Shown: positions 19,630 through 54,363, numbered from the stretch's first letter. The stretch: 64,000 nucleotides of DNA from Mycobacteriales bacterium (GCA_038256525.1 JBBSKF010000001.1:9706-73705), one strand, 5' to 3'. The notes: generated by a model not told the origin, from the letters alone. Translations and numbers: made by a program.

Positions 19630-19671
19630 CTGTAGCGACGCCTTTCACCAGTCAGGGGGGTGTCGCTACAG
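19630..19671 (-). terminator. Hairpin overlapping the stop codon of the 19666-21039 gene
   Basis: Perfect 10-bp inverted repeat CTGTAGCGAC (19630-19639) / GTCGCTACAG (19662-19671). There is no U-tract, so function is uncertain. Confidence 0.3.
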
Positions 19672-21039: not shown

Positions 21040-21170
21040 GTCTCTCCAGGGGGTGAGGGGTCAGCTAGACCTCTCCCACGCTGTCCATCGCTCCTGGCTC
21101 GCAGACGACGCCGAGGTGAACGTGGGGCAAAGTGCCGCCGAAGGCTGGGGGCGGGCCGGTCAGGGCGAGA

Positions 21171-22604: not shown

Positions 22605-24581
22605 ATGACCGAGCTGACCGACCGACCCGCCGCGGCGCACGCCGACGCCGCGTTCGACGCCGACGACCTGCCGTCGAGTCCGGCCACCACGCCGCACTTC
22701 GCCGAGGTGGTGCAGTCGCGGATGTCGCGCCGGACGGTGCTGCAGGGCGGCATGCTGGCAGCGGCCGGCTTCCTGACCACCTCGCTGGTCGACACCCCCG
22801 CCGCGCAGGCCGCACCCGGGGCGAAGGGCCGGCCCGCCGTGCCCCCGAGCACCGGCCTGCTGGGCTTCACACCGATCCCGCCCGGTTACGGCGACGAGGT
22901 CGTCGTGCCGGAGGGCTACAGCGCGGTGCCGTTCATCCCGTGGGGGACGCCACTGCAGCCGAGCGGTCCGCGCTTCGTACCGGGCACGCCAGACCTGATC
23001 GGCACCGGCAACACCGCCGCCGAGCAGGAGCAGCAGGTCGGCATGCACCACGACGGGATGCACTTCTTCCCCCTCGGCGAGCGCAAGCAGGCGAGCCGGC
23101 ACGGCCTGCTCGTGGTCAACCACGAGTACACCGACGAGTACTACCTGCACACCGGCACGTTCACCGAGTTGACCCCCGAGCAGTACACCCCCGACATGGT
23201 GCGCAAGTCCCAGGCCGCGCACGGCGTCGGCGTCTACGAGGTGCGGGCCAACCGGCACGGCAGCTGGCGGCTGATGCCGTCGAAGCTCAACCGGCGGATC
23301 ACGGCCAACACGCCGATGACGTTCTCGGGCCCCGCCGCCGGCAGCCCGCTGCTGGTCACCGGCGCCCCGGCCGACGGCACCAACCCGGTCGGCACCATGA
23401 ACAACTGCGCGCACGGCTACACGCCGTGGGGCACGTACCTGACCTGCGAGGAGAACTTCAACGGCTACTTCCGGGTCGACGCCGGCGCCTACACCGCCTC
23501 CCAGCAGGCACTGAACTCGAGGTACGGCGTCGGCGGCGACCGCTTCAACTGGGCCACCCAGGACGACCGCTTCGTGGTGACCGCGGCCCGGCCGAACGAG
23601 CCGAACCGGTTCGGCTGGGTCGTCGAGATCGACCCCTTCGCGGCCTCCTCGACCCCCGTGAAGCGCACGGCGCTCGGTCGGATGAAGCACGAGGGCGCTT
23701 ACATCCACGTCGCCGACAACGGCCACGTCGTCGCCTACATGGGCGACGACCAGGTCAACGAGTACGCCTACAAGTTCGTCAGCGCCCGACCGTGGCGGAC
23801 CATGGTGCTCGCCGGCCAGAGCCCGCTCGACGAGGGCACCCTCTACGTCGGCCGGTTCAACGACGACGGAAGCGGCGCCTGGCTCCCGCTGGTGCACGGC
23901 ACCGGGCCGCTGACGACGGCGAACGGCTTCGCCGATCAGGGCGACGTCCTCGTCAGGACCCGGCAGGCCGCCGATGCGCTCGGCGCGACCCGCATGGACC
24001 GCCCGGAGTGGACCGCCGTCGATGAGCGGACCGGCATGGTCTATCTGACGCTGACCAACAACACCTCGAGCAGCAAGGTGGTCAACGCGGCCAACCCACG
24101 CAAGCCCAACCCCTGGGGTCAGATCATCCGTTGGGAGGAGCGGGGTGGGGACCACACCTCCACGTCGTTCCAGTGGGACCTGTTCCTGCTCGCCGGTCCG
24201 GGCGGGGGCGCCGACGGCTCGACTGTCGACACCGAGGACGCGTTCGGCTCACCCGACGGCCTCTGGGTCGACCCGGACAGCCGGGTGTGGATCCAGACCG
24301 ACGGCCGGCAGCCGGCAGCGGCCAACAACCAGATGCTCGCCGCCGCCCCGACCCCGCTGACCTCCCCGGCGCGGCCTGACGTGCGGCGCTTCCTGACCGG
24401 TGTCATCGGCTGCGAGGTCACCGGCGTCATCACCACACCCGACCAGCGCACGATGTTCATCAACCTGCAGCACCCCGGCGAGGACGGCGGAAGCACCTGG
24501 CCGCAGGACGACGGCCTCGCCACGCCGCGATCGGCGACCGTCGTTATCGTCAAGGACGACGGCGGCGTGATCGGCACCTGA
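22605..24581 (+). CDS. phoX: Tat-secreted alkaline phosphatase PhoX (DUF839)
   Basis: SRRTVLQGGMLAAAGF Tat signal, NCAHGYTPWGTYLTCEEN and PEWTAVD. AGGGGAG RBS 7 nt upstream of the start. Confidence 0.8.
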   Translation: MTELTDRPAAAHADAAFDADDLPSSPATTPHFAEVVQSRMSRRTVLQGGMLAAAGFLTTSLVDTPAAQAAPGAKGRPAVPPSTGLLGFTPIPPGYGDEVVVPEGYSAVPFIPWGTPLQPSGPRFVPGTPDLIGTGNTAAEQEQQVGMHHDGMHFFPLGERKQASRHGLLVVNHEYTDEYYLHTGTFTELTPEQYTPDMVRKSQAAHGVGVYEVRANRHGSWRLMPSKLNRRITANTPMTFSGPAAGSPLLVTGAPADGTNPVGTMNNCAHGYTPWGTYLTCEENFNGYFRVDAGAYTASQQALNSRYGVGGDRFNWATQDDRFVVTAARPNEPNRFGWVVEIDPFAASSTPVKRTALGRMKHEGAYIHVADNGHVVAYMGDDQVNEYAYKFVSARPWRTMVLAGQSPLDEGTLYVGRFNDDGSGAWLPLVHGTGPLTTANGFADQGDVLVRTRQAADALGATRMDRPEWTAVDERTGMVYLTLTNNTSSSKVVNAANPRKPNPWGQIIRWEERGGDHTSTSFQWDLFLLAGPGGGADGSTVDTEDAFGSPDGLWVDPDSRVWIQTDGRQPAAANNQMLAAAPTPLTSPARPDVRRFLTGVIGCEVTGVITTPDQRTMFINLQHPGEDGGSTWPQDDGLATPRSATVVIVKDDGGVIGT

Positions 24582-26463: not shown

Positions 26464-27171
26464 TTACCGGCGAGTACCCAAGCCGGCTCGGCGCGTCGCG
26501 GCGTGCAGCAGGGCGAGCAACCCGTCAGCGGCCTGGCAGTGTCCGGTGAGCGTGGTGACCGACTCGGCCGCTGCCGGGTCCGCGAGCTCGAAGAGCACAG
26601 GCCGGCTGGGCGCTCGTTCGAGCAGCAGCGCCACCGCCGCCTCGCCCGGAGTCGGGCCGTCCGGGGCGAGCCCGGCGAGCACGGTCGGGTCGAGCGCGTC
26701 GGCCCCGACGGCCAGGGCCGCGTCGCTCCGTCCGGTCAGCAGCAGCCGCGAGGCCTCCGTGAGGGCGTCCAGTCCGGCGTTCGGCCCGCACAGCGTCAGA
26801 TTGGGACCGGTGGGTCCGAGCAGTGCCGCCAGCTGCCCGGCATGCACGCTCAACACCGTGTTGGGGAAGGCCATCGGAAAGACCCGGTCGGGGCCCTGCT
26901 CGGCGGCGACCTGCACGAAGGCGGCCAGCGGGTCGACGCTCGCCCACCGGGTCCCGAGCACGATCGCGCACCGCGCCGCCGCGACCGGTATCCCGGCGGT
27001 GCCGAGCGCGTCGGCGCACGCCACCATGGCGAGCCGCGCGGTGCGCGACAGGGGCCGCAGTCCCCGCATCTGCAGGGCGCCGTGCAGCACGTCGTCGGGC
27101 ACCCGCCCTGAGGCCGGCGCTGCACCGAAGCTGCCACGGCCACCTGCGTACAGCAGGCCGACCCCGGTCAC
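26464..27171 (-). CDS. Truncated beta-ketoacyl synthase N-terminal-like protein (CLF-like, no catalytic Cys or His)
   Basis: About 235 aa that align with only the N-terminal KS half. The position of the KS GGACAAG motif reads CGPNAG, and the C-terminal His-His half is absent. GTGA start/stop overlap with the upstream KS at 27168-27171. Confidence 0.65.
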   Translation of the reverse strand: MTGVGLLYAGGRGSFGAAPASGRVPDDVLHGALQMRGLRPLSRTARLAMVACADALGTAGIPVAAARCAIVLGTRWASVDPLAAFVQVAAEQGPDRVFPMAFPNTVLSVHAGQLAALLGPTGPNLTLCGPNAGLDALTEASRLLLTGRSDAALAVGADALDPTVLAGLAPDGPTPGEAAVALLLERAPSRPVLFELADPAAAESVTTLTGHCQAADGLLALLHAATRRAGLGTRR

Positions 27172-28403
27172 GAACACGGTGACCAGCCGGGGGCGGCCAG
27201 GACCGTGACGACGTCGATGCCGCCGAAGGCGTACGCCTGGTTGGCGATGATCCGCAGCGGTGCCTCGCGCGGTTCGTCCGGCACGATGTCCCAGTCCAGG
27301 GCCGGGTCCTGCTCGCCGGCGTGCCAGGTCGGCGGGATCACCTGCTGCTGCAGCGCGAGCACCGACAGCACTGCTTCGACGGCGCTGGCCGCACCGAGGC
27401 CGTGGCCGGTGAGCGACTTCACCGATGACGCTGGCGGACGAGGCCCGTCACCGAAAACCATATGCAGCGCGGCGATCTCAGCGGCGTCGTTCGCCGGAGT
27501 GCCCGTGCCGTGCGCGCAGACCCAGTCGACGTCGCATCGGTCGACCCGAGCATCCTCGATGGCGGAGCGCAGAGCTGCGGCCGCGCCCGCGCCCGAGGGC
27601 AGCGGCGCGGTCGGATGGTGGGCGTCGCAGGCGTGGCCCGCGCCGGCCAGCACGGCGAGCTCCTCGGCGCCCCGGCCGGCGGCACTCGAGCGCCGCTCGA
27701 GCACCAGGAAGGCCGCACCCTCGCCGAGCACCAGCCCCTGCCGGTCGCGGCCGAACGGCCGGCAGCCGTCGCGGGCGAGCGCGCCGAGCTTGGCGAAGCC
27801 GGTGAACGCGGTCCGGCTGAACGCATCGACCCCGCCGGCGAGCACCCGTGTGTGTGCGCCGGACCGAAGGACATCCAAGCCCCAGGCGAGGGCCGAGTTT
27901 CCGGCTGCGCAGGCACCGCCCAGGGCCAGCACCCGACCGTCCGCGCCGACGTGTCTCGCGGTGTCTGCCGCAAGGACGTCAGGTGTGCCGGCCAGCAGCT
28001 CCGCCGCGCGGTGCGGCAGCGGTGGCCAGGCCCGGGCATCCTCCTCCGGCCAGGTCTCGATCCAGGTCGGTTCGCCCATCGTCGTGCCCACCGCCACCGC
28101 CAGACCGGCACCGTCCGAACCGGCGCCGGCGAGCGCATCCTCGGCCGCGAGCCGGGACAGCGCGGCCGCCCGGCCGACCATCGGCCGTCCGGCGCCGTCG
28201 CGGTAGGACGACGGCAGCAGCGCGGCGGGCACCTCGGCGCCCAGGCACGTCGCGTAGTCGCTCGTGGAGAACGACCGCACCGGCCGCACCCCGCTGCGGC
28301 CGGCCAGCACCGCATCCCACAGCGACGGTGCACCCCGGCCCAAGGCCGTCACCACGCCGATCCCGGTCACGACGACGGGATCGCGCCCGTCGGACCCGCT
28401 CAC
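27168..28403 (-). CDS. Beta-ketoacyl-ACP synthase (FabF/KAS II-like)
   Basis: PVVVTGIGVVTALG, active-site LGGACAAGNSAL, CDAHHPTAP, VCAHGTGTPANDAAE and KSLTGHGLGAASAVE. GTG 28403 overlaps the ACP stop (GTGA). The 125 codons of the track ORF upstream of this start were rejected. Confidence 0.85.
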   Translation of the reverse strand: MSGSDGRDPVVVTGIGVVTALGRGAPSLWDAVLAGRSGVRPVRSFSTSDYATCLGAEVPAALLPSSYRDGAGRPMVGRAAALSRLAAEDALAGAGSDGAGLAVAVGTTMGEPTWIETWPEEDARAWPPLPHRAAELLAGTPDVLAADTARHVGADGRVLALGGACAAGNSALAWGLDVLRSGAHTRVLAGGVDAFSRTAFTGFAKLGALARDGCRPFGRDRQGLVLGEGAAFLVLERRSSAAGRGAEELAVLAGAGHACDAHHPTAPLPSGAGAAAALRSAIEDARVDRCDVDWVCAHGTGTPANDAAEIAALHMVFGDGPRPPASSVKSLTGHGLGAASAVEAVLSVLALQQQVIPPTWHAGEQDPALDWDIVPDEPREAPLRIIANQAYAFGGIDVVTVLAAPGWSPCS

Positions 28404-28642
28404 CTGCGGGCGCCCAGCCGCTCCTCGGTCAACGCGGCGAGCGCGCGCAGCGTCGTCGCGCGGATCAGCGAGGCCTCGTCGTAACGGACGCCGAACCGTC
28501 CTTCGGCGTGCACGGCGATCTCCATGGCCATGAGCGAGTCGACATCGACCTGCTCGAACGGCGTGTCCAGGTCGACGTCGGCGGGGTCGAGCTCGGCGAT
28601 CTCGGCGACGAGCTCCCGCAGGGCGTCCTGCAGCGGGGTCAC
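28400..28642 (-). CDS. Acyl carrier protein
   Basis: 80 aa with VDVDSLMAMEI (DSL phosphopantetheine-attachment serine). GTG 28642 overlaps the upstream stop (GTGA). Confidence 0.8.
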   Translation of the reverse strand: MTPLQDALRELVAEIAELDPADVDLDTPFEQVDVDSLMAMEIAVHAEGRFGVRYDEASLIRATTLRALAALTEERLGARR

Positions 28643-29574
28643 GAGGCGACCAGCTGCTCGTCCGGGGCCGGGGCATAGAGCGCGTGCGCCCGCGCCGCCG
28701 CGCCGGGCCCGCCCGACAGGTGGGCGAGCGGGTCGCCGCAGATGCGGTACTGCGAGGCGAGCACCTCGACCTGGCCATCGTCGACGAGTGCGCGGCGCAG
28801 CAGGTCGCCCAGCGAAGTGGGCGCCGCCTGCAGCGCTGCCGCCAGTCGCACCACCAGGCGCACGCTGTCCAGGTGCAGGACCGGCCGGACCGCGCCGAGC
28901 GACGCGGCGGCGGCTCCGGCGACCACGACCGACTCGCTGAAACTCAGTCCGACCCGCCAGCGGCTCGCGGTCCAGCAGGTCACCGACAGCAACGCCCCGA
29001 GCGGGGCGTCCAGGGCGGCGGCAGACAGGTGCTCCGCCCGCAGCCCGCGGTAGGCCGCCCAGCCACCCGGTCGGCCGTGGCCGAGATAGACGGCGAGGCC
29101 GAGCCCACCGCCCAGGCCGTGCAGCAGGTCCTCGCGGGTCACTCGCTCGGCGGTCCAGCGGACGACGTCGACATCCCCGAGGTGGCGCTCGAGCCGATCG
29201 GCCAGGTGCAGGTAGCGGGCCTCGCGCTGGCCGAGCACCGCGACGGGTGCGGGCGACCTGCGGCCGAGGACTTCCGCCGCGGTGGCAACGGCCAGCGGCA
29301 GCTGCGAGGTCACCGGCAACCAGCCGACGGGGACCGGCGCGCCGTCCGCGTCCGGAACGAACAGGCCGGGCAGGACCGTCTGCGGCGAGCGCTGCCGCGC
29401 ACCGACCAGGAGCACGCCGGCCGCTCCGGCCGGCACCCGGTCCTGCCACCGGGCCGGCGGGCCTTCGGCGGTCAGAACGCGGACCTCCCGGGTCGCGGCG
29501 TGCGCCGCCACCAGCGGCGCGAGCGCGGGCAGGGCCTGTGCCGGGGCCAGCAGCACCCAGGCGCCGTCGTTCAC
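28639..29574 (-). CDS. Peptidase C25 (gingipain)-like clan CD protein without a signal peptide
   Basis: VYLGHGRPGGW (His166), then LLSVTCWTAS (Cys200) 34 residues later, then FSES and YRICGDPLAHL. The order and spacing resemble the gingipain GHG...W / AC / GDP pattern. GTG 29574 overlaps the upstream stop (GTGA). Confidence 0.55.
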   Translation of the reverse strand: MNDGAWVLLAPAQALPALAPLVAAHAATREVRVLTAEGPPARWQDRVPAGAAGVLLVGARQRSPQTVLPGLFVPDADGAPVPVGWLPVTSQLPLAVATAAEVLGRRSPAPVAVLGQREARYLHLADRLERHLGDVDVVRWTAERVTREDLLHGLGGGLGLAVYLGHGRPGGWAAYRGLRAEHLSAAALDAPLGALLSVTCWTASRWRVGLSFSESVVVAGAAAASLGAVRPVLHLDSVRLVVRLAAALQAAPTSLGDLLRRALVDDGQVEVLASQYRICGDPLAHLSGGPGAAARAHALYAPAPDEQLVAS

Positions 29575-32351
29575 GCCGCGCGCACCTCGGCGATGTAGCT
29601 GTCGAAAGCAGCGGTGCTGGTCCCGGCCTTGGTCGCCGTGTAGAAGTCGCGCACGATCTGCGCCTGCTGCTCGGGATTGAAGGCCGCCAGACCCTCTGCC
29701 TCGTGATCGGCGAGCCCGGTTGCCCCGCCGTAGCTGTAGCCGTCGGTCTGCTGCCCGATCAGGGCGTGGGCCATGTAGACCGGGCCGACCTGCTCGCCCT
29801 GCCAGACGTGCATCAGCTCGTGCATGAGCCAGCCCTCCTGAGTCGGGTCCGTGTCGGAGTAGCTGGCCGGGAAGTGGATGATCCGCATGGTGACCACCCC
29901 GGTCGGGTTGCCGGTGTTGTTGGCGGCGGCCCAGGACACGAACGATCCCTCGAAGATCTGCACGTCGTCGTAGGGCAGCGTGTCCTGGAACACCGTCTCG
30001 GCCCGCGACCGCTCTCCCGCCGTGAGCCCGCGGAACACCCCGAAGATCTCGAGAACGATCGCGACCGCGCCGAACACCGCGCCGCCGAAGACCTCGAGCA
30101 GCCCGTCGAGCACCTCCTGCAGCGCGCTGCCGGCGTCTTTGAGGGCCTGCGTGATGCGCCGCTTGTCCTCGTCCCTGAGCGTGAACGCCTCCGCCAGGAT
30201 GTCCTTCACCTGCGTGCCGAGCTCGCGCAGCGCCTGCATCGTCAGCGCCAGGGCGTTCTGCGGCTGGGTGACCACGGCGACCAGGAGCTGGCCGAGCGTG
30301 ACGCCGGTGAGCAGGATCGCCTCCACGACCGCGACCACGGCCTCGAGCGCCTTGCCGGCGAACCACGCGACGAGGTCGGCGAGGGCGGCGCCGGCCCGTA
30401 GCAGGCCGCGCACGACCGCGGCGACTCCGGGCAGGAAGTCCTTGGCCACCCACGTGAGCAGGTAGCTGATCGAGTTCTTCAGCCTCGCCCACACCTCGCC
30501 GAGCAGATCGAGCGCGGCCTGCCCGGCCGCCTTCGCCCAGTCGATGACGTCGCGCAGCCGGCTGCCGATGTCCTCGGCGACCCGGACGACCGCCTCGAGG
30601 AAGTCCCGTCCCCGGGCAAGGGCCCAGCTCAGCGCCTCGTCGAGCGCCCGGCGGACGAAGCGGATCGCGAGCACCGCCTCACGCAGCAGCGCCTCGAAGG
30701 CGTTTGCCGCCTGGTTCGCGACCCAGTCGAGGATCTCCCCGACAGCCCGACCGGCCTGCAGGATGCCGGTGACCAGCCGGCGGAGCAGGAAGTAGGTGCC
30801 CGAAGCCGCCTGCTCCAGCAGGTCGGCCACGGCGACGCCCGCCGCGATCGCGGCCTGGACGAACCGGTAGACCGCCCGGTAGCTGAAGACCACGGCGGCC
30901 TTCACGAGCTCCCCGATCGCTGCCCCGGCCGCGACCAGAGCATCGATGGCGGCGTTGAGCGCGGACTGGGCGAGCCGAGCGACCTCCTGGACGATGCGCA
31001 GGACGGCGTAGCCGAGGTCCACTGCCGCCTCGACGGCCCGCCGCACCGCGTCCACGCTGAACCGGACCAGCTCGGTGATCAGGTCGCCCAGCGTCCGCCC
31101 CAGCTCCAGCACGGCGCGGGCCAGCTGCCGGGCGAGGTTTGCCGCCTCCTGGGCGATCAGGCGCATCACCTCGACGAAACCGCTCGCAACGCTGATCAGC
31201 TCCTTCACGACCTCGCGCAGCAGGTCTGCCGCGGTCTGCGCGACCTTGCGCACCACGTCAACGATCTGGTGCCCGAGCTCGACCAGGGCGCGGACCATCC
31301 GGCGCAGCAGGCTCAGCGAGGTCTCGACCGCCGCGCGGAGCACCGTCGCGAGGTTGTGACCCAGATCGATCAGCGCCTGGCCGATGCGGCCGAGCACCCC
31401 GCCGACCGCGTCGGCCGCCTGACGCACGATGTTGGCGAGAGTCTTGCCGATCGCGATCAGCGCCTGGACGACGTTCTTCACGATGTTCGCGGCCTGGGTG
31501 ACCAGGAAGGACAGCAGCTCCCCGAGCGTCTGGCCGAGGCTGTCGATCGCCCGGAGCAGCGTCCGCAGCGCTTCGCCGACGAAGGACACCGCGTCCTGCA
31601 GGATCGAGAACATGGCCCGGCCGGCGTCGCGGACGGCCTGCACCATCTTGCGGACGAAGTCGTAGCCGTGGGCCAGTGCGGCGCCCAGGAGCTGGCCGAT
31701 GCTCTGCCCGGCCGCGAGCAGCCCCTTGGCCAGGCTGGTGAGCTTGTCGACCGTCCAGCTGACCACCGAGGCGATGGCCGCGCCAAGGTCCTGGATGGCG
31801 TCGCTCACCGCGTCGACGAGGGCGTCGATGGCCTCCTTCACCTCATCGACGATGTCGTTGATGACCTCGACGATGGCGTTGTCCTGCTCGTCGTCGGCGG
31901 GAGTGACCGGCTGGGTCTGGAGCTGTGCGCCCAAGCCGGCGATGTGCTCCCAGACCGACTCGAGGGCCGCCTTGTCCTTGCGCCCGGCCGGGGTCAGCAC
32001 GAAGTCCTTCATCAGCGCCCGGGCATGCGCCGCCGGGAGCTGGCTGATGGCGTGGACGACCCACGGCTCCTGACCGGCGTCGCGGTAGCCCTTCAGCAGC
32101 ATCCGGCGTTCCTGCTCGCCCCGCGTCGCGACCGACTGGAACACCTGCCGGTGCTGGTCGATGCTCGGCAAGCCGCTCGCGTAGGCGGCCGCCAGCTTGC
32201 GAGCGGTGGCGGGTGACTGGGCGAACGCCTCCTGGAAGGCCGGCCCCACCTCCGACGGTGTGGGCTCGGCGAGGGCGACCCGCTCAGCGAGCTCGGCCGC
32301 CCCGCTGCGCGAGATGTTGCCCAGCATTGCCACGAAGCGTTCTGCTGCCAT
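29571..32351 (-). CDS. 926-aa helical-repeat protein with one predicted TM segment and a C-terminal DUF4157-like HExxH metallopeptidase domain
   Basis: Residues about 190-760 carry at least 17 copies of an x-[LA]-G-x-x-hydrophobic-x-x-hydrophobic-hydrophobic motif (for example LVELGHQIVDVV, VLELGRTLGDLI). The hydrophobic segment is VFGGAVFGAVAIVLEIFGVF. The C-terminus reads AETVFQDTLPYDDVQIF...WLMHELMHVWQGEQ, with HELMH encoded at 29808-29822. Confidence 0.7.
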   Translation of the reverse strand: MAAERFVAMLGNISRSGAAELAERVALAEPTPSEVGPAFQEAFAQSPATARKLAAAYASGLPSIDQHRQVFQSVATRGEQERRMLLKGYRDAGQEPWVVHAISQLPAAHARALMKDFVLTPAGRKDKAALESVWEHIAGLGAQLQTQPVTPADDEQDNAIVEVINDIVDEVKEAIDALVDAVSDAIQDLGAAIASVVSWTVDKLTSLAKGLLAAGQSIGQLLGAALAHGYDFVRKMVQAVRDAGRAMFSILQDAVSFVGEALRTLLRAIDSLGQTLGELLSFLVTQAANIVKNVVQALIAIGKTLANIVRQAADAVGGVLGRIGQALIDLGHNLATVLRAAVETSLSLLRRMVRALVELGHQIVDVVRKVAQTAADLLREVVKELISVASGFVEVMRLIAQEAANLARQLARAVLELGRTLGDLITELVRFSVDAVRRAVEAAVDLGYAVLRIVQEVARLAQSALNAAIDALVAAGAAIGELVKAAVVFSYRAVYRFVQAAIAAGVAVADLLEQAASGTYFLLRRLVTGILQAGRAVGEILDWVANQAANAFEALLREAVLAIRFVRRALDEALSWALARGRDFLEAVVRVAEDIGSRLRDVIDWAKAAGQAALDLLGEVWARLKNSISYLLTWVAKDFLPGVAAVVRGLLRAGAALADLVAWFAGKALEAVVAVVEAILLTGVTLGQLLVAVVTQPQNALALTMQALRELGTQVKDILAEAFTLRDEDKRRITQALKDAGSALQEVLDGLLEVFGGAVFGAVAIVLEIFGVFRGLTAGERSRAETVFQDTLPYDDVQIFEGSFVSWAAANNTGNPTGVVTMRIIHFPASYSDTDPTQEGWLMHELMHVWQGEQVGPVYMAHALIGQQTDGYSYGGATGLADHEAEGLAAFNPEQQAQIVRDFYTATKAGTSTAAFDSYIAEVRAA

Positions 32352-32480
32352 GACTCCCCCCAGAGATCATCACGAATGCTGCGCGACAACAGATCACAGT
32401 CGCTCGCGTCAGGTCAAGCAGCAGCCCTGCACAGACCGACCTGGCCCGGTGCCGTCGACCGCCGTCAGTACTGTCCCCGC

Positions 32481-34918: not shown

Positions 34919-35770
34919 ATGCGTGCTGTGTCAGGGTCGATCCCGCGGACGATCCGGCTCGCCACAGTGCTGCTGCCGGTCGGCCTGCTCGCCTCCGGGT
35001 GCAGCATGCGGGAGGCCTACGAGAGCACGTTTGCGCTCGGCTTCCCGGACCCCGTCACCGAGCAGGCGGAGAGCGTCTACGAGCTGTGGTTGGGCTCGGT
35101 CGCCGCCGCCGCGGTGGTCGGGGTGTTCGTCACCTTCCTGATCCTCTACGCGATGGTGCGCTTCCGGAAGACGGGCGACACGCTCCCGCGGCAGGTCCGG
35201 TACAACCTGCCGATCGAGGTGCTCTACACCGCGGTCCCCTTCGTGATCATCGCGGTGCTCTTCTACTACACGACGGTGAGCCAGAACTTCGTCCTCGCCA
35301 AGTCGAAGGACGGGGCGGACGTCAACATCGGTGTCGTCGGCTTCCAGTGGAACTGGACCTTCCGGCACGACGACTCAGGGGTCCAGGTCACCGGTGAGAC
35401 TCGAAAGCCCGCGCAGCTGGTCCTGCCGACCGACACCCGGATCCGCTTCACCGAGACCTCGCCCGACGTCATCCACTCCTTCTTCGTGCCCGCCTTCCTG
35501 TTCAAGCAGGACGTCGTCCCCGGTCGGGCCAACACCTTCGAGATCACGATCACGAAGGAGGGGACCTACATCGGGCGCTGCGCCGAGCTGTGCGGGGAGA
35601 AGCACTCGGCGATGAACTTCTCGGTCCGGGCGGTCTCCCCGCAGGCCTACGCGGACTACATCACCGAGCTCCAGTCCGACCCGGCCAACTCGATCGGGAC
35701 CACCGCCGGTGACGGCTCGGTCCGCAGCGCCGAGCAGGCCAAGGAACTGATCGACGGGAGACCCTCATGA
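34919..35770 (+). CDS. ctaC: Cytochrome c oxidase subunit II
   Basis: Lipobox LLASGC, two TM helices and CuA motif HSFFVPAF...[12 protein letters not shown]. The ORF was trimmed to ATG 34919. Confidence 0.9.
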
Positions 35771-37449
35771 CCTTGCTCGCGGAGGCCACCACCAGCCCGG
35801 TGCAGGTGCGCCGGCCGTCGCCCGGCCCGGGCTCGAAGATCACCAAGGTCCTCACCACCACCGACCACAAGACCATCGGCATGCTCTACCTGTGCACGTC
35901 GTTCGCGTTCTTCCTGGCGGCCGGCTTCATGGCGATGCTCATCCGGGCCGAGCTGGGCCAGCCAGGGCTGCAGATCGTCAGCCCGGAGCAGTACAACCAG
36001 CTGTTCACCATGCACGGCACGATCATGATGTTCCTGTTCGCCCCGCCGGCGGCGTACGGCTTCACGAACTACATCATGCCGTTGCAGATCGGCGCGCCGG
36101 ACATGAGCTTCCCGCGCCTGAACGCCTTCTCGTACTGGCTCTACCTGTTCGGCGGGCTGACCGTCCTGGCCGGCTTTCTCGCCCCCGAGGGTGCTGCGTC
36201 GTTCGGCTGGTTCGCCTACGCACCCCTGAACGACATCATCCGCTCGCCCTCGATCGGCGCCGACCTGTGGATCGTGGGGCTCGCGGTGTCCGGGCTCGGC
36301 ACCATCCTGGGGGCCGTCAACTTCATCACGACCATCATCACCCTGCGGGCTCCCGGCATGACCATGTTCCGGATGCCGATCTTCACCTGGAACATGCTGG
36401 TCACCTCGATCCTGGTCCTGCTGGCCTTCCCGGTCCTGACCGCGGCGCTGTTCGCGCTGCTGGCCGACCGGCACCTCGGGGCGCAGGTCTACAACCCCGA
36501 CAACGGTGGGGCGATCCTGTGGCAGCACCTGTTCTGGTTCTTCGGCCATCCTGAGGTCTACATCATCGCCCTGCCCTTCTTCGGGGTGATCACCGAGATC
36601 ATCCCGGTGTTCAGCCGCAAGCCGGTGTTCGGCTACAAGGGGCTGGTCTTCGCAACGCTCGGCATCGGCGCGCTGTCGCTGACCGTGTGGGCCCACCACA
36701 TGTACCCGACCGGCGCGGTATATCTACCGTTCTTCGCCTTCCTGAGCTTCCTCATCGCCGTTCCGACCGGCGTCAAGTTCTTCAACTGGATCGGCACGAT
36801 GTGGCGCGGCCAGCTCACGTTCGAGACGCCGATGCTGTTCGCGATCGGCTTTCTGATCACCTTCCTGCTCGGTGGTCTCACCGGTGTGCTGTTGGCTGCG
36901 CCGCCCATCGACTTCCACGTCAGCGACACCTACTTCGTGGTGGCCCACTTCCACTACGTCGTGTTCGGCACCGTGGTGTTCGCCTTCTTCGGCGGCGTCT
37001 ACTTCTGGTTCCCCAAGCTGACCGGCCGGATGATGAACGACCGGCTCGGCAAGGTCCACTTCTGGACCCTGTTCGTGGGCTTCCACCTCACCTTCCTCGT
37101 GCAGCACTGGGTCGGGGCGGAGGGGATGCCGCGCCGCTATGCCGACTACCTGCCGAGTGACGGCTTCACCACGCTGAACATGATCTCGACGGTCGGGGCC
37201 TTCGTGCTCGGTGCCTCGACGCTGCCGTTCATCTACAACGTGGTCGTGAGCTTCCGCCGCGGCGAGCGGGCTCTCAGTGACGACCCGTGGGGCTTCGGCA
37301 ACTCCCTCGAGTGGGCGACGTCCTGCCCACCGCCGCGGCACAACTTCGTGACCATGCCCCGCATCCGCTCGGAGCGGCCCGCCTTCGACCTGCACTTCCC
37401 GCAGGTGGCCGGCAAGGCCGACTTCCATGCCTCCCCGGAAGCGAAGTGA
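35767..37449 (+). CDS. ctaD: Cytochrome c oxidase subunit I
   Basis: [21 protein letters not shown] and HHMY motifs in 560 aa. Its start overlaps the ctaC stop. Confidence 0.95.
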
Positions 37450-37453
37450 TTCG

Positions 37454-37921
37454 GTGAAGGTCGAGGGCTACCTGTTCGCCCTGCTGGCGGCATTCCTGGT
37501 GCCGGTGACGGTGATCTACTGGCTGCTGTCCAAGGATCCCACCGGTACGGCGTGCCTGATCATGTCCATCGGGCTCGCCTTCATGGTGGGCTGGTATCTG
37601 CTGTTCACCGCGCGCCGGATGGACGCCCGCCCCGAGGACCGCCCGGATGCCGAGATCAGTGAGGGCTCCGGAGAGGTCGGCTTCTTCCCGCCGCACTCCT
37701 GGTGGCCGATCGCCATGGCGGGGGCGTTCACTCTCACCATGCTCGGCACCATCATCGGCCCGTTCCTCGTGATGATCGGCGCGGCCACGCTGGTCGTGGC
37801 GGCCGGCGGCTTCCTGTTCGAGTACTACGTCGGCGTGAACCGGACGCAGGGGTACACCGTCGGGGCGGTGCAGGCGATGGGGGAGCAGCCGACCAGCACG
37901 CGCAAGTTCCTCGGCGAATAG
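37454..37921 (+). CDS. ctaF: Cytochrome c oxidase subunit IV (actinobacterial CtaF)
   Basis: VKVEGYLFALLA... with four TM helices, immediately after ctaD. GTG start at 37454. Confidence 0.8.
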   Translation: MKVEGYLFALLAAFLVPVTVIYWLLSKDPTGTACLIMSIGLAFMVGWYLLFTARRMDARPEDRPDAEISEGSGEVGFFPPHSWWPIAMAGAFTLTMLGTIIGPFLVMIGAATLVVAAGGFLFEYYVGVNRTQGYTVGAVQAMGEQPTSTRKFLGE

Positions 37922-38025
37922 CTCAGGTCGACCGCCGCTGCCGGAGTCGGGCCAAGGGGCCGGCGAGTCGGGGGCGCCGGGCCTGTGGAGGCGGCTGCGC
38001 AGCGTGGCGAGGCGGCGGGGTGGCG

Positions 38026-38133
38026 AGCCCCGAGCCCCGATCCCCCAACCCCCGCCGATCATGGAGTTGTGGCACACCCGTTGAGCGTGCCGGCCGAGCA
38101 CAAGTTCCATGATCGGCGAGAGGAAGGCGGGGG
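38026..38133. repeat. Palindromic intergenic element, copy 2
   Basis: C-tracts (CCCCGAGCCCCGATCCCCCAACCCCCG), the 58-nt core at 38056-38113 (GATCATGGAGTTGTGGC...GCACAAGTTCCATGATC) and a G-rich arm. It has the same orientation and architecture as copy 1. Confidence 0.7.
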
Positions 38134-38186
38134 TCCACCTGCTGTCGGTGCTCCGGCCAGGACAGCGGCACGGGCCGGGGAGCCGG

Positions 38187-39821
38187 CTACGAGGGTCGGT
38201 TCGTCTTGCTGGTCGCTTCGAGCTCGGGCAGCGTCGCTTCGGGCCGCTCCGCTGATCCGTTCTTCGAGCCGTTCTTGGAACCGTTGCGACGGGGCGAGAA
38301 GAAGCCGTCTTTATCCGGCGCCGGCTCGACCGCTGCCTTCTCATATCCGGGGCCGAGCGGCGGTGGAGCGCTGTGGTCCAGCGCCTCGGCCTCCACGCCG
38401 GTGAGCCCGAGCTGGTAGACGAGCGGCAACGGGACGGTTTCCTCGACGAACTCGCCGGAGGGCAGCCGCCGGATGGTGCCCGACTCGATGCCGTGGTGCA
38501 GCAGCTCCTGGTCACTGTGCTGCAGCGCGAGGCACCAGCGCTTGGTGATCACGTAGACCAGCGGCGGCACCACGATCAAGGCAATGCGTCCTGCGATCGT
38601 CATGGAGTTGACGTTCACGCCGAAGACCGAGGCGATCACGTCGTTGCCACCCGCGATGACGAGGATGATGTAGAAGGCGAGGGACATGGCGCCGATGGCG
38701 GTCCGCACCGGAACGTCGCGCGGACGGTCCAACAGGTTGTGGTAGTCGCGGTCGCGGGTGAAGCGTGCCTCGAGCCACGGGTAGACCATCATCACCGTGA
38801 ACATCAGCCCGGGCATGATCACTGTCGGGAGCAGGACGTTGAACGGCACCGTGTAGCCGAGGCCGCTCAGCTCCCAGTTGGGCATGAGGCGCAACGAGCC
38901 GTCGAGGAAGCCGATGTACCAGTCGGGCTGTGAGCCGGCGGTCACCTGCGAGGCGTTGTACGGCCCGTACAGCCAGATGGGGTTGATCTGCGCCAATCCG
39001 CCGAGCGCGGCCATCACCGCGAACACCAGGAAGAAGAAGCCACCGGCCTTGGCGGCATAGGCGGGATAGAGCCGGGAGCCGACCACGTTGTTCTCGGTCC
39101 GGCCCGGTCCGGCGAACTGGGTGTGCTTCTGGTACCAGATCATCAGCATGTGGAAGGTGATCAGGCCGAGGATGGCCAGCGGGATCACGAAGATGTGCAA
39201 GGCGTAGAGCCGGTCGAGGAACTCTGTGCCGGGGTATTCGCCGCCGTAGATCAGGAACGTGGCCCACGAGCCGATGACCGGAACCGACAAGATGATGCCG
39301 TGGAAGATGCGGGCGCCGGTGCCGGACAGCAGGTCGTCCGGCAGTGAGTAGCCGGCGAAGCCTTCGAGCAGACCGAGAACCAGCAGCAGCACGCCGATGA
39401 GCCAGTTGAGCTCGCGCGGCTTGCGGAAGGCACCGGTGAAGAACACCCGCATGAGGTGCACCACGATCGCGGCGATGAACAGCAGGGCCGCCCAGTGATG
39501 GATCTGCCGCATGATCAGGCCGCCGCGCACGTCGAAGCTGATGTAGAGCGTCGACTCGTAGGCCTGCGACATCGTCACGCCCTTGAGCGGGATGTAGCCG
39601 CCGTCGTAGACGACCTCGGTCAGGGACGGTGTGTAGAAGAACGACAGATAGGTCCCGGTGAGCAGCAGGATGATGAAGCTGTAGAGCGCGATCTCGCCGA
39701 GCATGAACGACCAGTGGTCCGGAAAGACCTTGTTGAGGCTCTTGCGGACGTAGCCGGCGGCGCCGAGCCGTTCGTCCACCCAGCCGGCCGTGGTGGCGGG
39801 CGCCTTTTCCAGACGGCTCAT
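38187..39821 (-). CDS. qcrB: Cytochrome bc1 complex cytochrome b subunit
   Basis: FPDHWSFMLGEIALYSF, the heme-ligand His region and a long actinobacterial C-terminal extension. ATG 39821 overlaps the qcrA stop (ATGA). Confidence 0.9.
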   Translation of the reverse strand: MSRLEKAPATTAGWVDERLGAAGYVRKSLNKVFPDHWSFMLGEIALYSFIILLLTGTYLSFFYTPSLTEVVYDGGYIPLKGVTMSQAYESTLYISFDVRGGLIMRQIHHWAALLFIAAIVVHLMRVFFTGAFRKPRELNWLIGVLLLVLGLLEGFAGYSLPDDLLSGTGARIFHGIILSVPVIGSWATFLIYGGEYPGTEFLDRLYALHIFVIPLAILGLITFHMLMIWYQKHTQFAGPGRTENNVVGSRLYPAYAAKAGGFFFLVFAVMAALGGLAQINPIWLYGPYNASQVTAGSQPDWYIGFLDGSLRLMPNWELSGLGYTVPFNVLLPTVIMPGLMFTVMMVYPWLEARFTRDRDYHNLLDRPRDVPVRTAIGAMSLAFYIILVIAGGNDVIASVFGVNVNSMTIAGRIALIVVPPLVYVITKRWCLALQHSDQELLHHGIESGTIRRLPSGEFVEETVPLPLVYQLGLTGVEAEALDHSAPPPLGPGYEKAAVEPAPDKDGFFSPRRNGSKNGSKNGSAERPEATLPELEATSKTNRPS

Positions 39822-40951
39822 GTCCCACGCTCCCAATAGCTCGGACCGATCGGCTCCGAAAAGTCGCCTTGCGCGATGAAGTATCCCTCGTCATCGACCG
39901 AGATCGCCAGTTGGGGAAGGGCGCGGGCGGCCGGTCCGAAGATGACCGTGGCTCCGGTGCTCGCGTCGAAGACCGACTGGTGGCAGGGGCACAGCAGGTT
40001 GTGGGTCTGCTGCTCGTACAGCTTGACCGGGCAGCCCAGGTGGGTGCAGATGCTCGAGTAGACGACATGCCCCTTGTAGGCCCAGTCCTGTTGCTCGCCC
40101 TCGAGCTTGAGCTCCTCGGGACGCATGCGGATGAGCAGTGCCGGTGAGTCGGCCGCGATCGTGCCGTGGAAGACGTCGGGGAAGACGCTCTCGACCCCGC
40201 CGATCTGCAGATCGCCGAGCTTGACCGGAGTGCCGTTCTGGCGGATGAGACGGACCCCCTCGACCCACGAGGTCGTCGCCAGCACCCGCTCCTTGTGCTG
40301 GAAGCGCCCGAGGAAGCCGACGAACGGCAACGGCAGCAGCGCGAGCGAGCCGGCTCCGAGCAGCAAGGTGTTGCGCAACAGCTTGCGGCGGGGCAGCCCG
40401 GTGTCGGCCAGGCCCTGCCGAAGCGCCTTCGCGGTCGCGGCGCGCTCGTCCGGCGCGGAGCCGAAGGGGTGTCGCTCCTGCACGGCCTCGTCGTCGACCA
40501 TCAGGAGCTTGGCCCACAGCACCGTCCCGGCGCCGACGCCGCCCAGGGCCATGGCCATGAACACCCCGAGCAGGGGGGTGAAGTAGGCGTTGCCCGGCGC
40601 GCCGAACTCCTGCTCCTGGGCGAAGAACGTCACGATGAAGCTGATCACGCCGATCACGGCCAGCAGGAACAGCGAGGCGACCTTGCGTTCGGCGATGGCG
40701 GCGTCGCGCTCGCTGAGTGGGGCGTGTGGCGGGTGCGCCGCGGGCTGGGCGGGGTGATCGCTGTGCCGCTGTCCGTCGCCGTGACCGGAGGTGTACAGGT
40801 CGGTGCCGCTGCTGCTGTTGGTGTGACTGCTGGAGGAGACGTCGGACCCGCGGGTGTCGCCGGGACCGCTGGCCGAACTGCTCGGCCGGGGTGAGCTCAG
40901 CTTTTCGGGCAACGAGCCCGAGTCGGGGTGCTCGGGCCGGTCGTCGCTCAT
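39818..40951 (-). CDS. qcrA: Cytochrome bc1 complex Rieske iron-sulfur subunit
   Basis: CTHLGCPV...CPCHQSVF Rieske motifs and N-terminal TM helices. ATG 40951 overlaps the qcrC stop (ATGA). Confidence 0.9.
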   Translation of the reverse strand: MSDDRPEHPDSGSLPEKLSSPRPSSSASGPGDTRGSDVSSSSHTNSSSGTDLYTSGHGDGQRHSDHPAQPAAHPPHAPLSERDAAIAERKVASLFLLAVIGVISFIVTFFAQEQEFGAPGNAYFTPLLGVFMAMALGGVGAGTVLWAKLLMVDDEAVQERHPFGSAPDERAATAKALRQGLADTGLPRRKLLRNTLLLGAGSLALLPLPFVGFLGRFQHKERVLATTSWVEGVRLIRQNGTPVKLGDLQIGGVESVFPDVFHGTIAADSPALLIRMRPEELKLEGEQQDWAYKGHVVYSSICTHLGCPVKLYEQQTHNLLCPCHQSVFDASTGATVIFGPAARALPQLAISVDDEGYFIAQGDFSEPIGPSYWERGT

Positions 40952-53644: not shown

Positions 53645-54363
53645 GCCGCCGAGCGGCCGCCGCCCTGCTGACGGTCCTGTTGCTGGTCGGCTGCGCGGGC
53701 CAGCGGACGACGACCCTGGATCAGGCGTCTCCGCTACCGGACCCGTCCGGGCCGACGCTGAGCCGGCTGGACGCGGCCGTCGCCGGCGTCGACAGCACCC
53801 GCACGCAGCTGCTGGCCGCGCCGGCGGCGGTCACCGCCGCCGCCACCGCGCTCGACACGGCTGACGCGGCCAGCGCCGAGGGCGCGCGCGCAGCAGCCCG
53901 CGCGGCCCGGAACGCCGTCCGGGACGTCGTTCCGGCGGCGACGGCCGCCCTCGATGCCCTGCCGCAACAGGCCGCGGAGTACGAAACGGCTCTCGCAGCG
54001 CTGGCTCTGGCCGCTGAGCCGCTCGAGTCGGCGCAGAAGGCCGCCCTCGAGAACGTCGTTACGGCGGGCAGGGCCGAGGCCACCGCCATCATGGCGTTCG
54101 GGCTCACAGCCCGAAACGCCTGGCCGGCCTACACGGCGCTCGACAAGGCGGAGGCCCTGTGGCTGGAGCGGGCGACCGCGGGGTGGTACCGCACCGAGTC
54201 CGAGGCCGCCGATGCCTACACCGTCCTGCTCCGGCCGCAACGCGCGGCCCTGGACCGGGCGCGCGCCGCCCTGCGTGAGGCCGACGCCGGACGTCGCCCG
54301 GCCACGGATCGACAACGGCAGGCGCTGACCGCCGCCGACGCGGCGCTCGCTCCGCTGCGCTGA
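53641..54363 (+). CDS. Lipoprotein, alanine-rich helical
   Basis: The track ORF starts at TTG 53680, inside the lipobox (LLVGC). The upstream in-frame sequence LSRRAAAALLTVLL completes a signal peptide, and the only start-like codon there is CTG 53641. Confidence 0.5.
   Translation: MSRRAAAALLTVLLLVGCAGQRTTTLDQASPLPDPSGPTLSRLDAAVAGVDSTRTQLLAAPAAVTAAATALDTADAASAEGARAAARAARNAVRDVVPAATAALDALPQQAAEYETALAALALAAEPLESAQKAALENVVTAGRAEATAIMAFGLTARNAWPAYTALDKAEALWLERATAGWYRTESEAADAYTVLLRPQRAALDRARAALREADAGRRPATDRQRQALTAADAALAPLR

Follow-up and report, generated by a model that had tools for sequence, protein, structure and literature searches.

The question raised by this locus is what kind of protein its 926-residue reading frame encodes and in which cellular process that protein takes part. 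A preliminary description of the window, by which the entire 64,000-nucleotide stretch of DNA from a Mycobacteriales bacterium is meant, had read the frame as a Gly-centred helical repeat ending in a TM segment and a DUF4157-like HELMH domain. The frame is clearly coding, as its GC contents at the three codon positions are 0.74, 0.44 and 0.94, and all of the peptides quoted earlier were located in the protein, between residues 268 and 851. The protein consists of a family-specific helical N-terminal domain, a solenoid of ~21 repeats of 29 residues each, a hydrophobic last hairpin and a zincin domain of the VgrG2b/DUF4157 type (Table 1). What had been overlooked is that its gene heads a translationally coupled operon of five genes.

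Table 1. Features of the solenoid-zincin operon, in window coordinates; residue numbers refer to the solenoid-zincin protein
Feature	Position	Strand	Remarks
Truncated KS-N-terminal-like protein, 237 aa, CLF-like	26464..27177	-	PF00109 only; last operon gene
Ketosynthase (KS), 411 aa	27168..28403	-	Both Pfam KS halves; nearest to KS subunits of KS/CLF heterodimers
Acyl carrier protein (ACP), 80 aa, DSL phosphopantetheine site	28400..28642	-	PP-binding, E 1e-15; GTGA overlap with C25 stop
C25-like cysteine peptidase (clan CD, gingipain/caspase-fold), 311 aa	28639..29574	-	GTG start overlaps upstream stop (GTGA)
Solenoid-zincin gene, 926 aa	29571..32351	-	Operon gene 1; GGGGGGAG ribosome-binding site 4 nt 5' of ATG
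VgrG2b-like/DUF4157-type zinc metallopeptidase domain, residues 774-926	29574..30032	-	Match to 6h56
HELMH zinc-binding/catalytic motif, H844 E845 H848	29808..29822	-	Sequence motif, invariant in 69 sequences
Hydrophobic segment EVFGGAVFGAVAIVLEIFGVF, residues 752-772	30036..30098	-	Turn and helix B of last repeat
~21 tandem 29-residue helix-turn-helix repeats, residues ~155-770	30042..31889	-	Alpha-solenoid; Gly at turn
N-terminal all-helical domain, residues 1-146	31914..32351	-	Family-specific; conserved GG...WLxxAGxxLR

The C-terminal domain, ~150 residues long, is homologous to the likewise C-terminal metallopeptidase domain of VgrG2b from Pseudomonas aeruginosa (PDB 6h56; phmmer E 9.5e-11, profile E 6.4e-14). 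The phmmer alignment pairs protein residues ~770-915 (55-200 of the 211-aa C-terminal fragment) with chain residues 95-239, and the two domains share the motifs LxxxExxxAxxVFGxSID...V, HExxHVWQ and FNxEQQ. HExxH is present in 84 of 84 related loci. A comparison of 69 homologues confirmed that the HExxH of HELMH is conserved and revealed 12 invariant residues in the zincin region (R774, E780, H844, E845, H848, W850, Q851, G856, Y859, Q867, N892, E894), of which E894 (29670-29672) is likely the third zinc ligand; to judge from these residues, the zincin is catalytically intact. The assignment to DUF4157 holds in so far as the domain is a homologue of VgrG2b with a conserved HExxH, but the Pfam model PF13699 scores only 18.0 bits with the full protein and 19.5 bits with the C-terminal 340 residues, below the gathering threshold of 22 bits. 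Since 33 of the 69 relatives match PF13699 at E<0.1 (best E 5e-9), the family lies at the edge of this model. The effector metallopeptidase family of VgrG2b is "frequently annotated as DUF4157" (PMC6899460).

The resemblance to eCIS-associated effectors noted earlier does not extend beyond the domain and its surroundings. These effectors (PF13699, "eCIS core domain") belong to the same zincin superfamily, and in them, too, long helical or linker regions adjoin the domain. However, their DUF4157 domain is N-terminal, with the toxin at the C-terminus, and they are encoded within eCIS operons (PMC8213781; PMC11126660), whereas here the domain is C-terminal, eCIS genes are missing and the score stays under the Pfam cut-off. 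The C-terminal placement is real but not unusual, as it is also seen in VgrG2b and in PAAR and VgrG fusions. The window indeed lacks contractile-injection genes, its ~30 scanned ORFs being housekeeping genes; no eCIS, T6SS or T7SS genes were found in it, and none recurred in 85 related loci. We infer that in this genome the protein is carried by neither an eCIS nor a T6SS.

It is improbable, too, that the protein acts as a polymorphic toxin which is secreted or injected, with a VgrG2b-like antibacterial zincin, a solenoid that serves delivery or translocation, and export that proceeds through lysis or along a route not yet recognised. Its nearest solved relative is a T6SS toxin that acts in the periplasm and requires the HExxH Glu for toxicity (PMC6899460), homologues of the domain fused to PAAR and VgrG were found on plasmids, and in long relatives a signal peptide and PKD domains precede this C-terminal module. 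The exchange of the C-terminal enzyme among subfamilies, zincin in one and phosphoesterase in another, is also in the style of polymorphic toxins. Yet the solenoid-zincin protein lacks a signal peptide as well as any PAAR, VgrG, Rhs, LXG, WXG or T9SS marker; no VgrG/PAAR fusion, T6SS linkage or small downstream immunity ORF was found in the window and the related loci, the conserved downstream gene instead encoding an enzyme of 311 aa whose catalytic dyad is intact; and the architecture recurs in monoderm and diderm phyla, which have no secretion machinery in common. Compared with VgrG2b, the protein lacks the spike/PAAR carrier, the T6SS and the small immunity gene but has in addition 770 residues of N-terminal domain and solenoid, the hydrophobic hairpin and a C25-like enzyme as dedicated partner. 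Its family also occurs in Actinomycetota, which are not known to possess a T6SS. An extracytoplasmic zincin is nevertheless conceivable because of the relatives with signal peptide and PKD domains and the periplasmic action of VgrG2b.

The genes of the operon are arranged in the order solenoid-zincin, C25-like cysteine peptidase, ACP, KS and truncated CLF-like KS, and at each of the four junctions the stop and start codons overlap as GTGA. The second protein passed the PF01364 cut-off (32.6 versus 23 bits), and its H167 and C201 are conserved at 97% in 79 sequences. With family C25, to which gingipain R and the T9SS sortase PorU belong, it shares the YxGHG...W His motif and the catalytic Cys. 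In contrast to these enzymes it is only 311 residues long, possesses neither an N-terminal signal peptide nor Ig-like or CTD domains nor a T9SS, and belongs to a family that occurs in many phyla outside Bacteroidota; the match to PorU amounts to a trace (13.8 bits against a 420-bit cut-off).

In the sample of 85 related loci, which span more than 10 phyla (Actinomycetota, Chloroflexota, Bacteroidota, Pseudomonadota, Verrucomicrobiota, Acidobacteriota, Nitrospirota, Desulfobacterota, Myxococcota and others), 79 have the C25-like gene immediately downstream in the same orientation. The invariable core of the module is the solenoid-zincin protein and a dedicated C25-like peptidase. The complete order with C25, ACP, KS and the second KS-like gene was found in 37 loci, to which five at contig ends can be added (~42), and a convergent KS/ACP pair in five further loci. 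Since ~32 loci are devoid of ACP and KS genes, the PKS-like set is accessory. The genes that flank the operon in the window were found in none of the related loci, not even in those with 62-65% protein identity, and the module hence changes its genomic location between genomes. No description of the operon was found in the literature searched, so that it appears to be previously undescribed across the many bacterial phyla in which it occurs.

A patchy distribution across phyla, flanks that are never conserved, a constant repeat region combined with a swappable effector, and the pairing of two proteases are what might be expected of an anti-phage or abortive infection system. In such a system the solenoid would sense the invader and the C25-like protease would activate the membrane-proximal zincin, or the phosphoesterase of the sister family, with ensuing damage to the envelope. 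We assign this proposal a low probability. No family member was found in 50,697 phage records and no full-length member in 72,556 plasmid records, the genes next to the operon, in the window as in five annotated related loci, have housekeeping roles and do not form defence islands, and a PKS-like set is unusual for a defence operon. The repeat region does weakly match PADLOC tail models of ZorA (E 5.7e-8), but the other four operon proteins have no PADLOC match. ZorA of Zorya was rejected as a candidate: the match covers only positions 414-660 of the 663-position model, i.e. the helical tail without the MotA/ExbB-like domain, and the NCBIfam ZorA model scores 15.8 bits against a cut-off of 250.

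The last three gene products resemble a minimal type II PKS/FAS set in their sequences, which display the Ser motif of the ACP, the triad motifs of the KS and, next to it, an incomplete KS paralogue. The KS motifs ACAAG, HGTGT and GHGLGA, read by eye in the translation, match a Cys-His-His triad. The best PDB matches of the KS are 9s5h_B (3e-77) and 6kxd_A (7e-71), and that of the CLF-like protein, which across loci comprises the KS N-terminal half only (131-293 aa), is 9s5h_C (9e-13); both proteins thus have KS/CLF pairs as their top PDB matches. In KS/CLF heterodimer systems (highly reducing type II PKS-like; 6kxd and the heteromeric FabF-like pair 9s5h) the genes for a free-standing ACP, for a KS and for a KS paralogue that is catalytically incomplete likewise follow one another. 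The 6kxd ketosynthase is presumably Iga11-Iga12 of ishigamide. Unlike in those systems, the genes are embedded among protease genes, and the operon encodes no ketoreductase, dehydratase, thioesterase, transferase or release enzyme.

The motif [LA]G..h..hh, the Gly-centred element recognised at the outset, occurs 18 times in residues 190-760, compared with a mean of 2.8 +/- 1.6 and a maximum of 8 in 2000 shuffles, and only 2 Pro were found in the same region, in agreement with the near-absence stated before. BLOSUM62 self-similarity yielded an exact period of 29 residues, with z values of 16.5, 15.2, 14.8 and 11.2 at lags 29, 58, 87 and 116, and four homologues with 28-31% identity display peaks at the same lags. 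In residues 183-559, 13 consecutive units follow one another without any shift in register, each with Gly at its fourth position, and their consensus is idAGxalGelLrxAVxxaadaLRrlVqAL; a GxxxG pair is present in many units. An HMM built from the 13 units detected 8-10 units per homologue in four of four distant homologues (i-E <= 0.01) and none in 20 shuffles. Secondary peaks at lags 4, 7, 11, 15, 18 and 22 correspond to 29/8 = 3.6 residues per turn.

An AlphaFold2 model, built on an alignment of 70 sequences, folds each 29 residues of the repeat segments that it predicts with confidence (residues ~155-250 and 480-770, pLDDT of 10-residue blocks mostly 81-97, 68 at 751-760) into one 9-residue and one 13-residue helix, and in these segments it bears out the array of helical hairpins that had been proposed; the middle third, residues 253-470, has low confidence. 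The blocks of the N-terminal domain, for which no Pfam or PDB match was obtained, reach pLDDT 80-97. Foldseek retrieved generic alpha-solenoids only, at TM-scores < 0.2; designed helical repeat proteins and karyopherins of the HEAT type came first, and CRM1, CAND1 and mTOR were among the matches. Like HEAT-like and designed repeat proteins the model stacks helix-turn-helix hairpins, but its 29-residue unit is short and has a consensus of its own, and no Pfam repeat family matched it.

Two other views of the protein were weighed. A lipid or polyene biosynthesis and packaging system, in which the ACP/KS/CLF product is bound or coated by the hydrophobic repeat region in the manner of phasins or apolipoproteins and the proteases mature the assembly, would account for the collinear ACP-KS-KS' genes in about half of the loci, the convergent KS/ACP pair in five more, the proximity of the KS to KS subunits of KS/CLF heterodimers and the high proportion of A, V, L, I or F (~55%) in the repeat region. 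Weak Pfam matches to the lipid-surface proteins Phasin_2, ApoLp-III, Apolipoprotein and CsmB point in the same direction, but those to the phasin and apolipoprotein models are most simply explained by an Ala/Leu-rich helical composition. With Phasin_2 (PF09361) the window protein scores 19.4 bits, under the gathering threshold of 24.9 bits, which three homologues pass with 29-33 bits, most likely owing to their Ala-rich helices. As, moreover, ~32 loci do without PKS-like genes, the operon supplies no reductase, dehydratase, thioesterase or transferase, and the model is a compact hairpin solenoid instead of long amphipathic helices, we consider this proposal quite improbable. Still far less credible is a long continuous coiled coil of a fibrous or stalk protein, with 29 residues as four heptads plus a skip residue: the period with its 3.6-residue secondary peaks, the precedent of SF-assemblin, a segmented coiled coil of identical repeat length (PMC2119799), and helices of up to ~120 residues in an earlier AlphaFold2 model from a shallow alignment speak for it, but that model had a pLDDT of just 42, the 70-sequence model divides every repeat of its confident regions (residues ~155-250 and 480-770) into two helices and places the conserved Gly at the turn between them, Foldseek returned solenoids, and the protein is predicted to fold into hairpins, unlike the two-stranded SF-assemblin, to which it has no sequence similarity.

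The solenoid ends in a segment that had been taken for a TM segment. It is indeed strongly hydrophobic, with the highest Kyte-Doolittle 19-residue mean of the protein (2.24; family median 1.81), and is kept across the family. However, it is in phase with the repeat (model helices 744-754 and 759-770), being modelled as a turn followed by a helix of 12 residues, and it includes a Gly-Gly and a Glu that are conserved; the protein has no signal peptide, and the flanks of the segment are more positively charged on the C-terminal side, which does not favour an N-in/C-out orientation. In the model it forms the last repeat hairpin, which is possibly a membrane anchor. In the sister subfamily, in which a calcineurin-like phosphoesterase replaces the zincin, a hydrophobic hairpin of 40-50 residues (19-residue mean 2.7-2.9) precedes the enzyme, a likeness that suggests membrane anchoring of the solenoid-zincin protein as well.

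The explanation that best accounts for the whole, and which we give an even chance of being correct, is a module of a multidomain solenoid-zincin protein and a C25-like peptidase, optionally extended by ACP, KS and CLF, that works inside the cell close to the membrane. As both proteases lack signal peptides and secretion markers, the module is probably intracellular and located on the cytoplasmic membrane or close to it. The hydrophobic hairpin would tether the solenoid to this membrane, so that the solenoid could act as a scaffold or as a platform for ligand binding, and the zincin would be the hydrolase that delivers the output. The most likely task of the C25-like enzyme is to process or activate the solenoid-zincin protein or to act with it on a shared substrate. 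The gene of this enzyme travels with the zincin form and is missing from the one locus of the phosphoesterase form with readable flanks (n=1). The ACP/KS/CLF set would supply an acyl or polyene chain as a ligand, lipid anchor or co-product.

A more far-reaching interpretation, which we regard as rather unlikely, is that the solenoid-zincin/C25 pair and the frequently associated ACP-KS-CLF genes constitute a widespread, undescribed system that couples the product of a dedicated mini-PKS to the proteolytic processing of a giant membrane-anchored repeat protein. For example, sortase-like transpeptidation or acyl transfer by the C25-like enzyme, in the style of PorU or GPI8, might lipidate or activate the zincin, or the system might be a protease-gated machine for conflict or envelope remodelling to which the lipid is the ligand.

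The solenoid-zincin, a protein composed of an N-terminal domain, a long array of 29-residue repeats, a hydrophobic segment and a C-terminal zincin, is encoded by an open reading frame with GC contents of 0.74/0.44/0.94 at the three codon positions (window ~72% GC), a pattern typical of genuine genes in high-GC actinobacteria. Its ATG is preceded at a distance of 4 nt by a GGGGGGAG ribosome-binding site. All peptides quoted in the preliminary description were found in the protein, and the Gly-centred motif reported there occurs 18 times between residues 190 and 760, compared with a mean of 2.8±1.6 and a maximum of 8 in 2000 shuffles. Judged by its sequence, the repeat is more regular than that description could tell. 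BLOSUM62 self-similarity peaks at lags of 29, 58, 87 and 116 residues (z = 16.5, 15.2, 14.8 and 11.2), which establishes the suspected internal periodicity as one of 29 residues, and identical lag peaks occur in four homologues with just 28-31% identity to the solenoid-zincin. Thirteen units (residues 183-559) follow one another in perfect register with the consensus idAGxalGelLrxAVxxaadaLRrlVqAL; with an HMM of these units, every distant homologue gives 8-10 significant units and 20 shuffled sequences give none. A multi-core RiPP precursor was ruled out because the repeats are ~25-30% alike (estimated by eye) and fold confidently.

An AlphaFold model based on a 5-sequence alignment was useless (pLDDT 42); a 70-sequence alignment yielded a mean pLDDT of 75, with 360 residues at 90 or higher. 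In the latter model, the N-terminal 146 residues form a confidently predicted bundle of nine short helices, a domain with no relative in Pfam or the PDB. The repeat units in the confident regions (residues 155-250 and 480-770) are each predicted to consist of a 9-residue helix, a turn that contains the conserved Gly, and a 13-residue helix, with short helices starting at residues 479, 508, 537, 569, 599, 628, 657, 686, 715 and 744. The repeat region is accordingly modelled as an alpha-solenoid of ~21 hairpins, the first of the two alternatives that had been proposed. Residues 253-470 are poorly modelled because this stretch is missing from the shorter family members, which leaves few sequences in that part of the alignment; at the sequence level the repeat continues through it unbroken. 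The hairpin units make readings as continuous helices, either a coiled coil or long amphipathic lipid-binding helices, unlikely for the confident regions, with the middle third (residues 253-470) formally open to them.

Residues 752-772 have the highest hydropathy of the protein (KD19 2.24), and the corresponding segment is hydrophobic across the family (median KD19 1.81; at least 1.6 in 75% of the sequences). The preliminary description saw in it a transmembrane segment; the segment is, however, in phase with the repeat and is predicted to form the turn and helix B of the last hairpin (helices 744-754 and 759-770), and a single-pass transmembrane helix is unproven. It contains a conserved Gly-Gly and a conserved Glu, the charges on its two sides do not point to an N-in/C-out orientation, and no signal peptide was found in the protein. 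A sister subfamily that carries a calcineurin-like metallophosphoesterase in place of the zincin has at this position a hydrophobic hairpin of 40-50 residues (KD19 2.7-2.9), which argues for some membrane role, and a membrane-anchoring hairpin is plausible.

The C-terminal residues 770-915 match the effector metallopeptidase domain of VgrG2b (PDB 6h56) with an E-value of 1e-10, and a profile of 69 family members does so with 6e-14. Common to both are the motifs LxxxExxxAxxVFGxSID...V, HExxHVWQ and FNxEQQ. The VgrG2b domain has a zinc-binding metallopeptidase fold, is toxic only in the periplasm, where toxicity requires the Glu of HExxH, and belongs to a family "frequently annotated as DUF4157" (Wood et al., PMC6899460). 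The Pfam profile of DUF4157 (PF13699, renamed "eCIS core domain") scores 18-19.5 bits on the solenoid-zincin, below its cut-off of 22 bits, and matches 33 of the 69 relatives (best E 5e-9). The proposed DUF4157-like C-terminus therefore holds at the level of the superfamily, and the nearest branch is VgrG2b. R774, E780, H844, E845, H848, W850, Q851, G856, Y859, Q867, N892 and E894 are invariant in the 69 sequences, and HExxH is retained in all 84 related loci compared; E894 is plausibly the third zinc ligand. A domain placed at the C-terminus is usual in this branch: VgrG2b and the plasmid PAAR and VgrG fusions have it there too, unlike eCIS effectors, whose DUF4157 domain is N-terminal (PMC8213781, PMC11126660). 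R774 was ruled out as a site of cleavage by the C25-like peptidase encoded next to the solenoid-zincin, since VgrG2b conserves this Arg but lacks a C25 partner; a basic patch at the end of the N-domain was ruled out as a cleavage site because it is missing from the window protein.

The solenoid-zincin gene is the first of an operon that the preliminary description missed. Four genes follow on the same strand, each with a GTG start that overlaps the preceding TGA, and the five genes are translationally coupled (see table). The domain identities of the encoded proteins are clear. The ketosynthase (KS) is nearest to the KS subunits of KS/CLF heterodimers (9s5h_B, 3e-77; 6kxd_A, 7e-71), the latter from what we take to be the ishigamide Iga11-Iga12 pair, and the nearest PDB match of the half-KS (KS') is 9s5h_C. 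Both proteases keep, by sequence, intact catalytic residues, and the C25-like peptidase is predicted to be cytoplasmic. Rfam, promoter and terminator scans of the operon revealed nothing meaningful. On the other side, the annotated start of a divergent pfkB-family kinase gene lies close to that of the solenoid-zincin gene; since the Pfam match in the kinase begins at residue 68, its true start is probably farther downstream, which would enlarge the control region that the two genes share.

Features of the window (positions in nucleotides)
Feature	Position	Strand	Evidence or remark
Solenoid-zincin	29571-32351	minus	926 residues
C25-like cysteine peptidase	28639-29574	minus	PF01364, 32.6 bits, above cut-off
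Acyl carrier protein (ACP)	28400-28642	minus	PP-binding, E 1e-15
Ketosynthase (KS)	27168-28403	minus	motifs matching Cys-His-His triad, read by eye
237-aa protein, KS N-terminal half only (KS')	26464-27177	minus	Pfam domain content
Gap between solenoid-zincin ATG and annotated kinase ATG	32352-32375		24 bp
PhoX alkaline phosphatase paralogue	19666-21060	minus	
PhoX alkaline phosphatase paralogue	22605-24581	plus	
DinB_2 + FGE-sulfatase protein	11716-13113	plus	
Low-GC region	36000-40000		GC 0.66 vs ~0.72 elsewhere
ctaD	35767-37449		
Cytochrome b gene	38187-39836		
506-aa protein	54329-55849	plus	Peptidase_MA_2, 30 bits vs 32.4-bit cut-off (sub-threshold)

Elsewhere in the window, the two divergent PhoX paralogues lie no more than 3.5 kb apart, just upstream of the glycerate kinase gene. 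The DinB_2 and FGE-sulfatase architecture is that of the ergothioneine enzyme EgtB and suggests an egt cluster in that part of the window. The dip in GC content is probably due to the composition of membrane proteins and not to foreign DNA, as ctaD and the cytochrome b gene lie in the region. The 506-aa protein is another putative zincin, unrelated to the solenoid-zincin.

Word-indexed searches recovered only 4, 7 and 25 homologues because Ala-rich words swamp the index, whereas in an exhaustive profile search the number of cluster representatives was 170 at E<1e-30 and rose to 1187 at E<1e-10. A scan of 185,579 genomes, one for each species, confirmed at least 450 matching loci. The 85 loci examined come from more than 10 phyla; the best 80 include Actinomycetota, Gaiellaceae, Chloroflexota, Bacteroidota, Alpha-, Beta- and Gammaproteobacteria, Verrucomicrobiota, Acidobacteriota, Nitrospirota, Desulfobacterota, Myxococcota, Gemmatimonadota, Fibrobacterota and Planctomycetota. 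An orthologue with 62% identity is present in the cultured strain Nocardioides halotolerans DSM 19273. The C25-like gene, whose His167 and Cys201 are 97% conserved, lies immediately downstream on the same strand in 79 of the 85 loci. The full C25-ACP-KS-KS' order occurs in 37 loci, with 5 more interrupted by contig ends; ~32 loci have the pair without further operon genes, 5 of them with a convergent KS/ACP pair. The gene pair is thus conserved across phyla and its linkage to ACP/KS/KS' is frequent. At 12 two-gene loci a gene for an LGFP-repeat protein (~550-600 aa, no obvious signal peptide) lies directly upstream on the same strand (L047:6064-7728; also L048, L049, L052-L054, L057, L059, L060, L064, L067 and L075); it counts as a third accessory that recurs with the module and has no counterpart in the window.

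In the window, the module lies within a core chromosomal block between the HesB-like gene and the pfkB/cta genes. None of its flanking genes (PhoX, glycerate kinase and HesB on one side; pfkB kinase, cysteine desulfurase, ctaC and ctaD on the other) is present near any homologue, which indicates that the module moves as a unit. No full-length copy was found in 72,556 plasmids and 50,697 phage genomes; plasmid matches were confined to T6SS-fused zincin domains on 3 plasmids, and phages had no match. The closest metagenomic relatives (P0155-P0158, L085:10001-13566; 46-60% identity) were called as truncated, Arg-rich proteins; their genes appear to be frameshifted in the assemblies, so that in protein databases the family seems less common and shorter than it really is. 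In two metagenome contigs from related actinobacteria (L085:9590-9913, L086:3646-4548) the module has a DUF309 gene upstream, which may reflect synteny within the lineage and not belong to the system. A single EAD11 (effector-associated domain) gene ~2 kb downstream of a two-gene module on a probable Bacteroidota contig (L003:9524-9910) weakly hints at a conflict-system neighbourhood.

The phosphoesterase subfamily (P0051, P0112, P0116, P0132, P0139-P0141) retains the N-domain and the 29-residue solenoid, and by this sequence comparison the scaffold accepts alternative C-terminal hydrolases, zincin or metallophosphoesterase. The one phosphoesterase-form locus with flanks that was compared (P0140, L090:1190-4435) has no C25-like gene; on present evidence the C25-like enzyme accompanies the zincin form. 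Proteins of ~2000 aa (P0106, P0131) have a signal peptide, many PKD domains and Asp-rich calcium-type repeats, followed by the last few repeats and the zincin; P0130, P0120 and P0134 are further representatives listed with this PKD architecture. The one readable locus of this form has no C25 gene. Neighbours of the PKD form at L088:3537-9377 encode a TPR-rich ATPase-like protein and another secreted HExxH protein.

No export signals, injection genes or immunity-type ORF were recognisable for the module, and the window holds no contractile-injection genes, as the preliminary description had stated. We propose that the module works inside the cell that makes it, on or close to the cytoplasmic membrane. 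The solenoid would be a scaffold or ligand-binding platform, with the hydrophobic last hairpin as anchor, and the zincin would be the output enzyme; the C25-like peptidase would process or activate the solenoid-zincin, or both would act on a common substrate, and the mini-PKS would provide an acyl or polyene chain that serves as a ligand, an anchor or a co-product. We give this general picture of a membrane-proximal module, C25-processed or -paired and supplied by a mini-PKS, an even chance of being right, and any individual step much less confidence than the whole.

A secreted polymorphic toxin is improbable, although this reading draws real support from the toxicity of VgrG2b, the exchange of the C-terminal domain between subfamilies and the existence of long secreted forms; neither a delivery route nor an immunity gene was found. 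Similarly improbable is an anti-phage or abortive-infection system, with which the patchy, mobile, modular pattern and a weak match to the ZorA tail would agree, but not the housekeeping neighbourhoods. It is quite improbable that the module serves lipid or polyene biosynthesis with a phasin-like coat; the phasin and apolipoprotein matches, like that to ZorA, were set aside as family assignments and taken as helical or compositional similarity. The repeat region can hardly be a fibrous coiled coil such as SF-assemblin with its 29-residue repeats (PMC2119799), since the confident repeat units are split by AlphaFold into two helices.

Each domain class is already known; new are the architecture and the operon in which the VgrG2b/DUF4157-type zincin occurs. 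Pfam, NCBIfam and PADLOC cover neither the repeat family, the N-domain and the solenoid-zincin architecture nor the pairing with a C25-like peptidase and a minimal ACP/KS/CLF set, and no description of these, or of the operon combination, was found in the papers searched. That the whole module is a new kind of system is rather unlikely. To our knowledge, zincins of the DUF4157/VgrG2b type are known solely as cargo of contractile injection machines, and we know of no substrate for them. Here the catalytic domain of such cargo occurs in very different surroundings: it follows a new 29-residue solenoid and has a clan-CD cysteine peptidase as its partner (79/85 loci), often together with a minimal ACP/KS/CLF set. 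The analysis defines a conserved operon that these databases leave unannotated and reveals a solenoid scaffold that appears to tolerate different C-terminal enzymes, and the family offers a secretion-independent, genetically tractable route to finding the substrates of these zincins.
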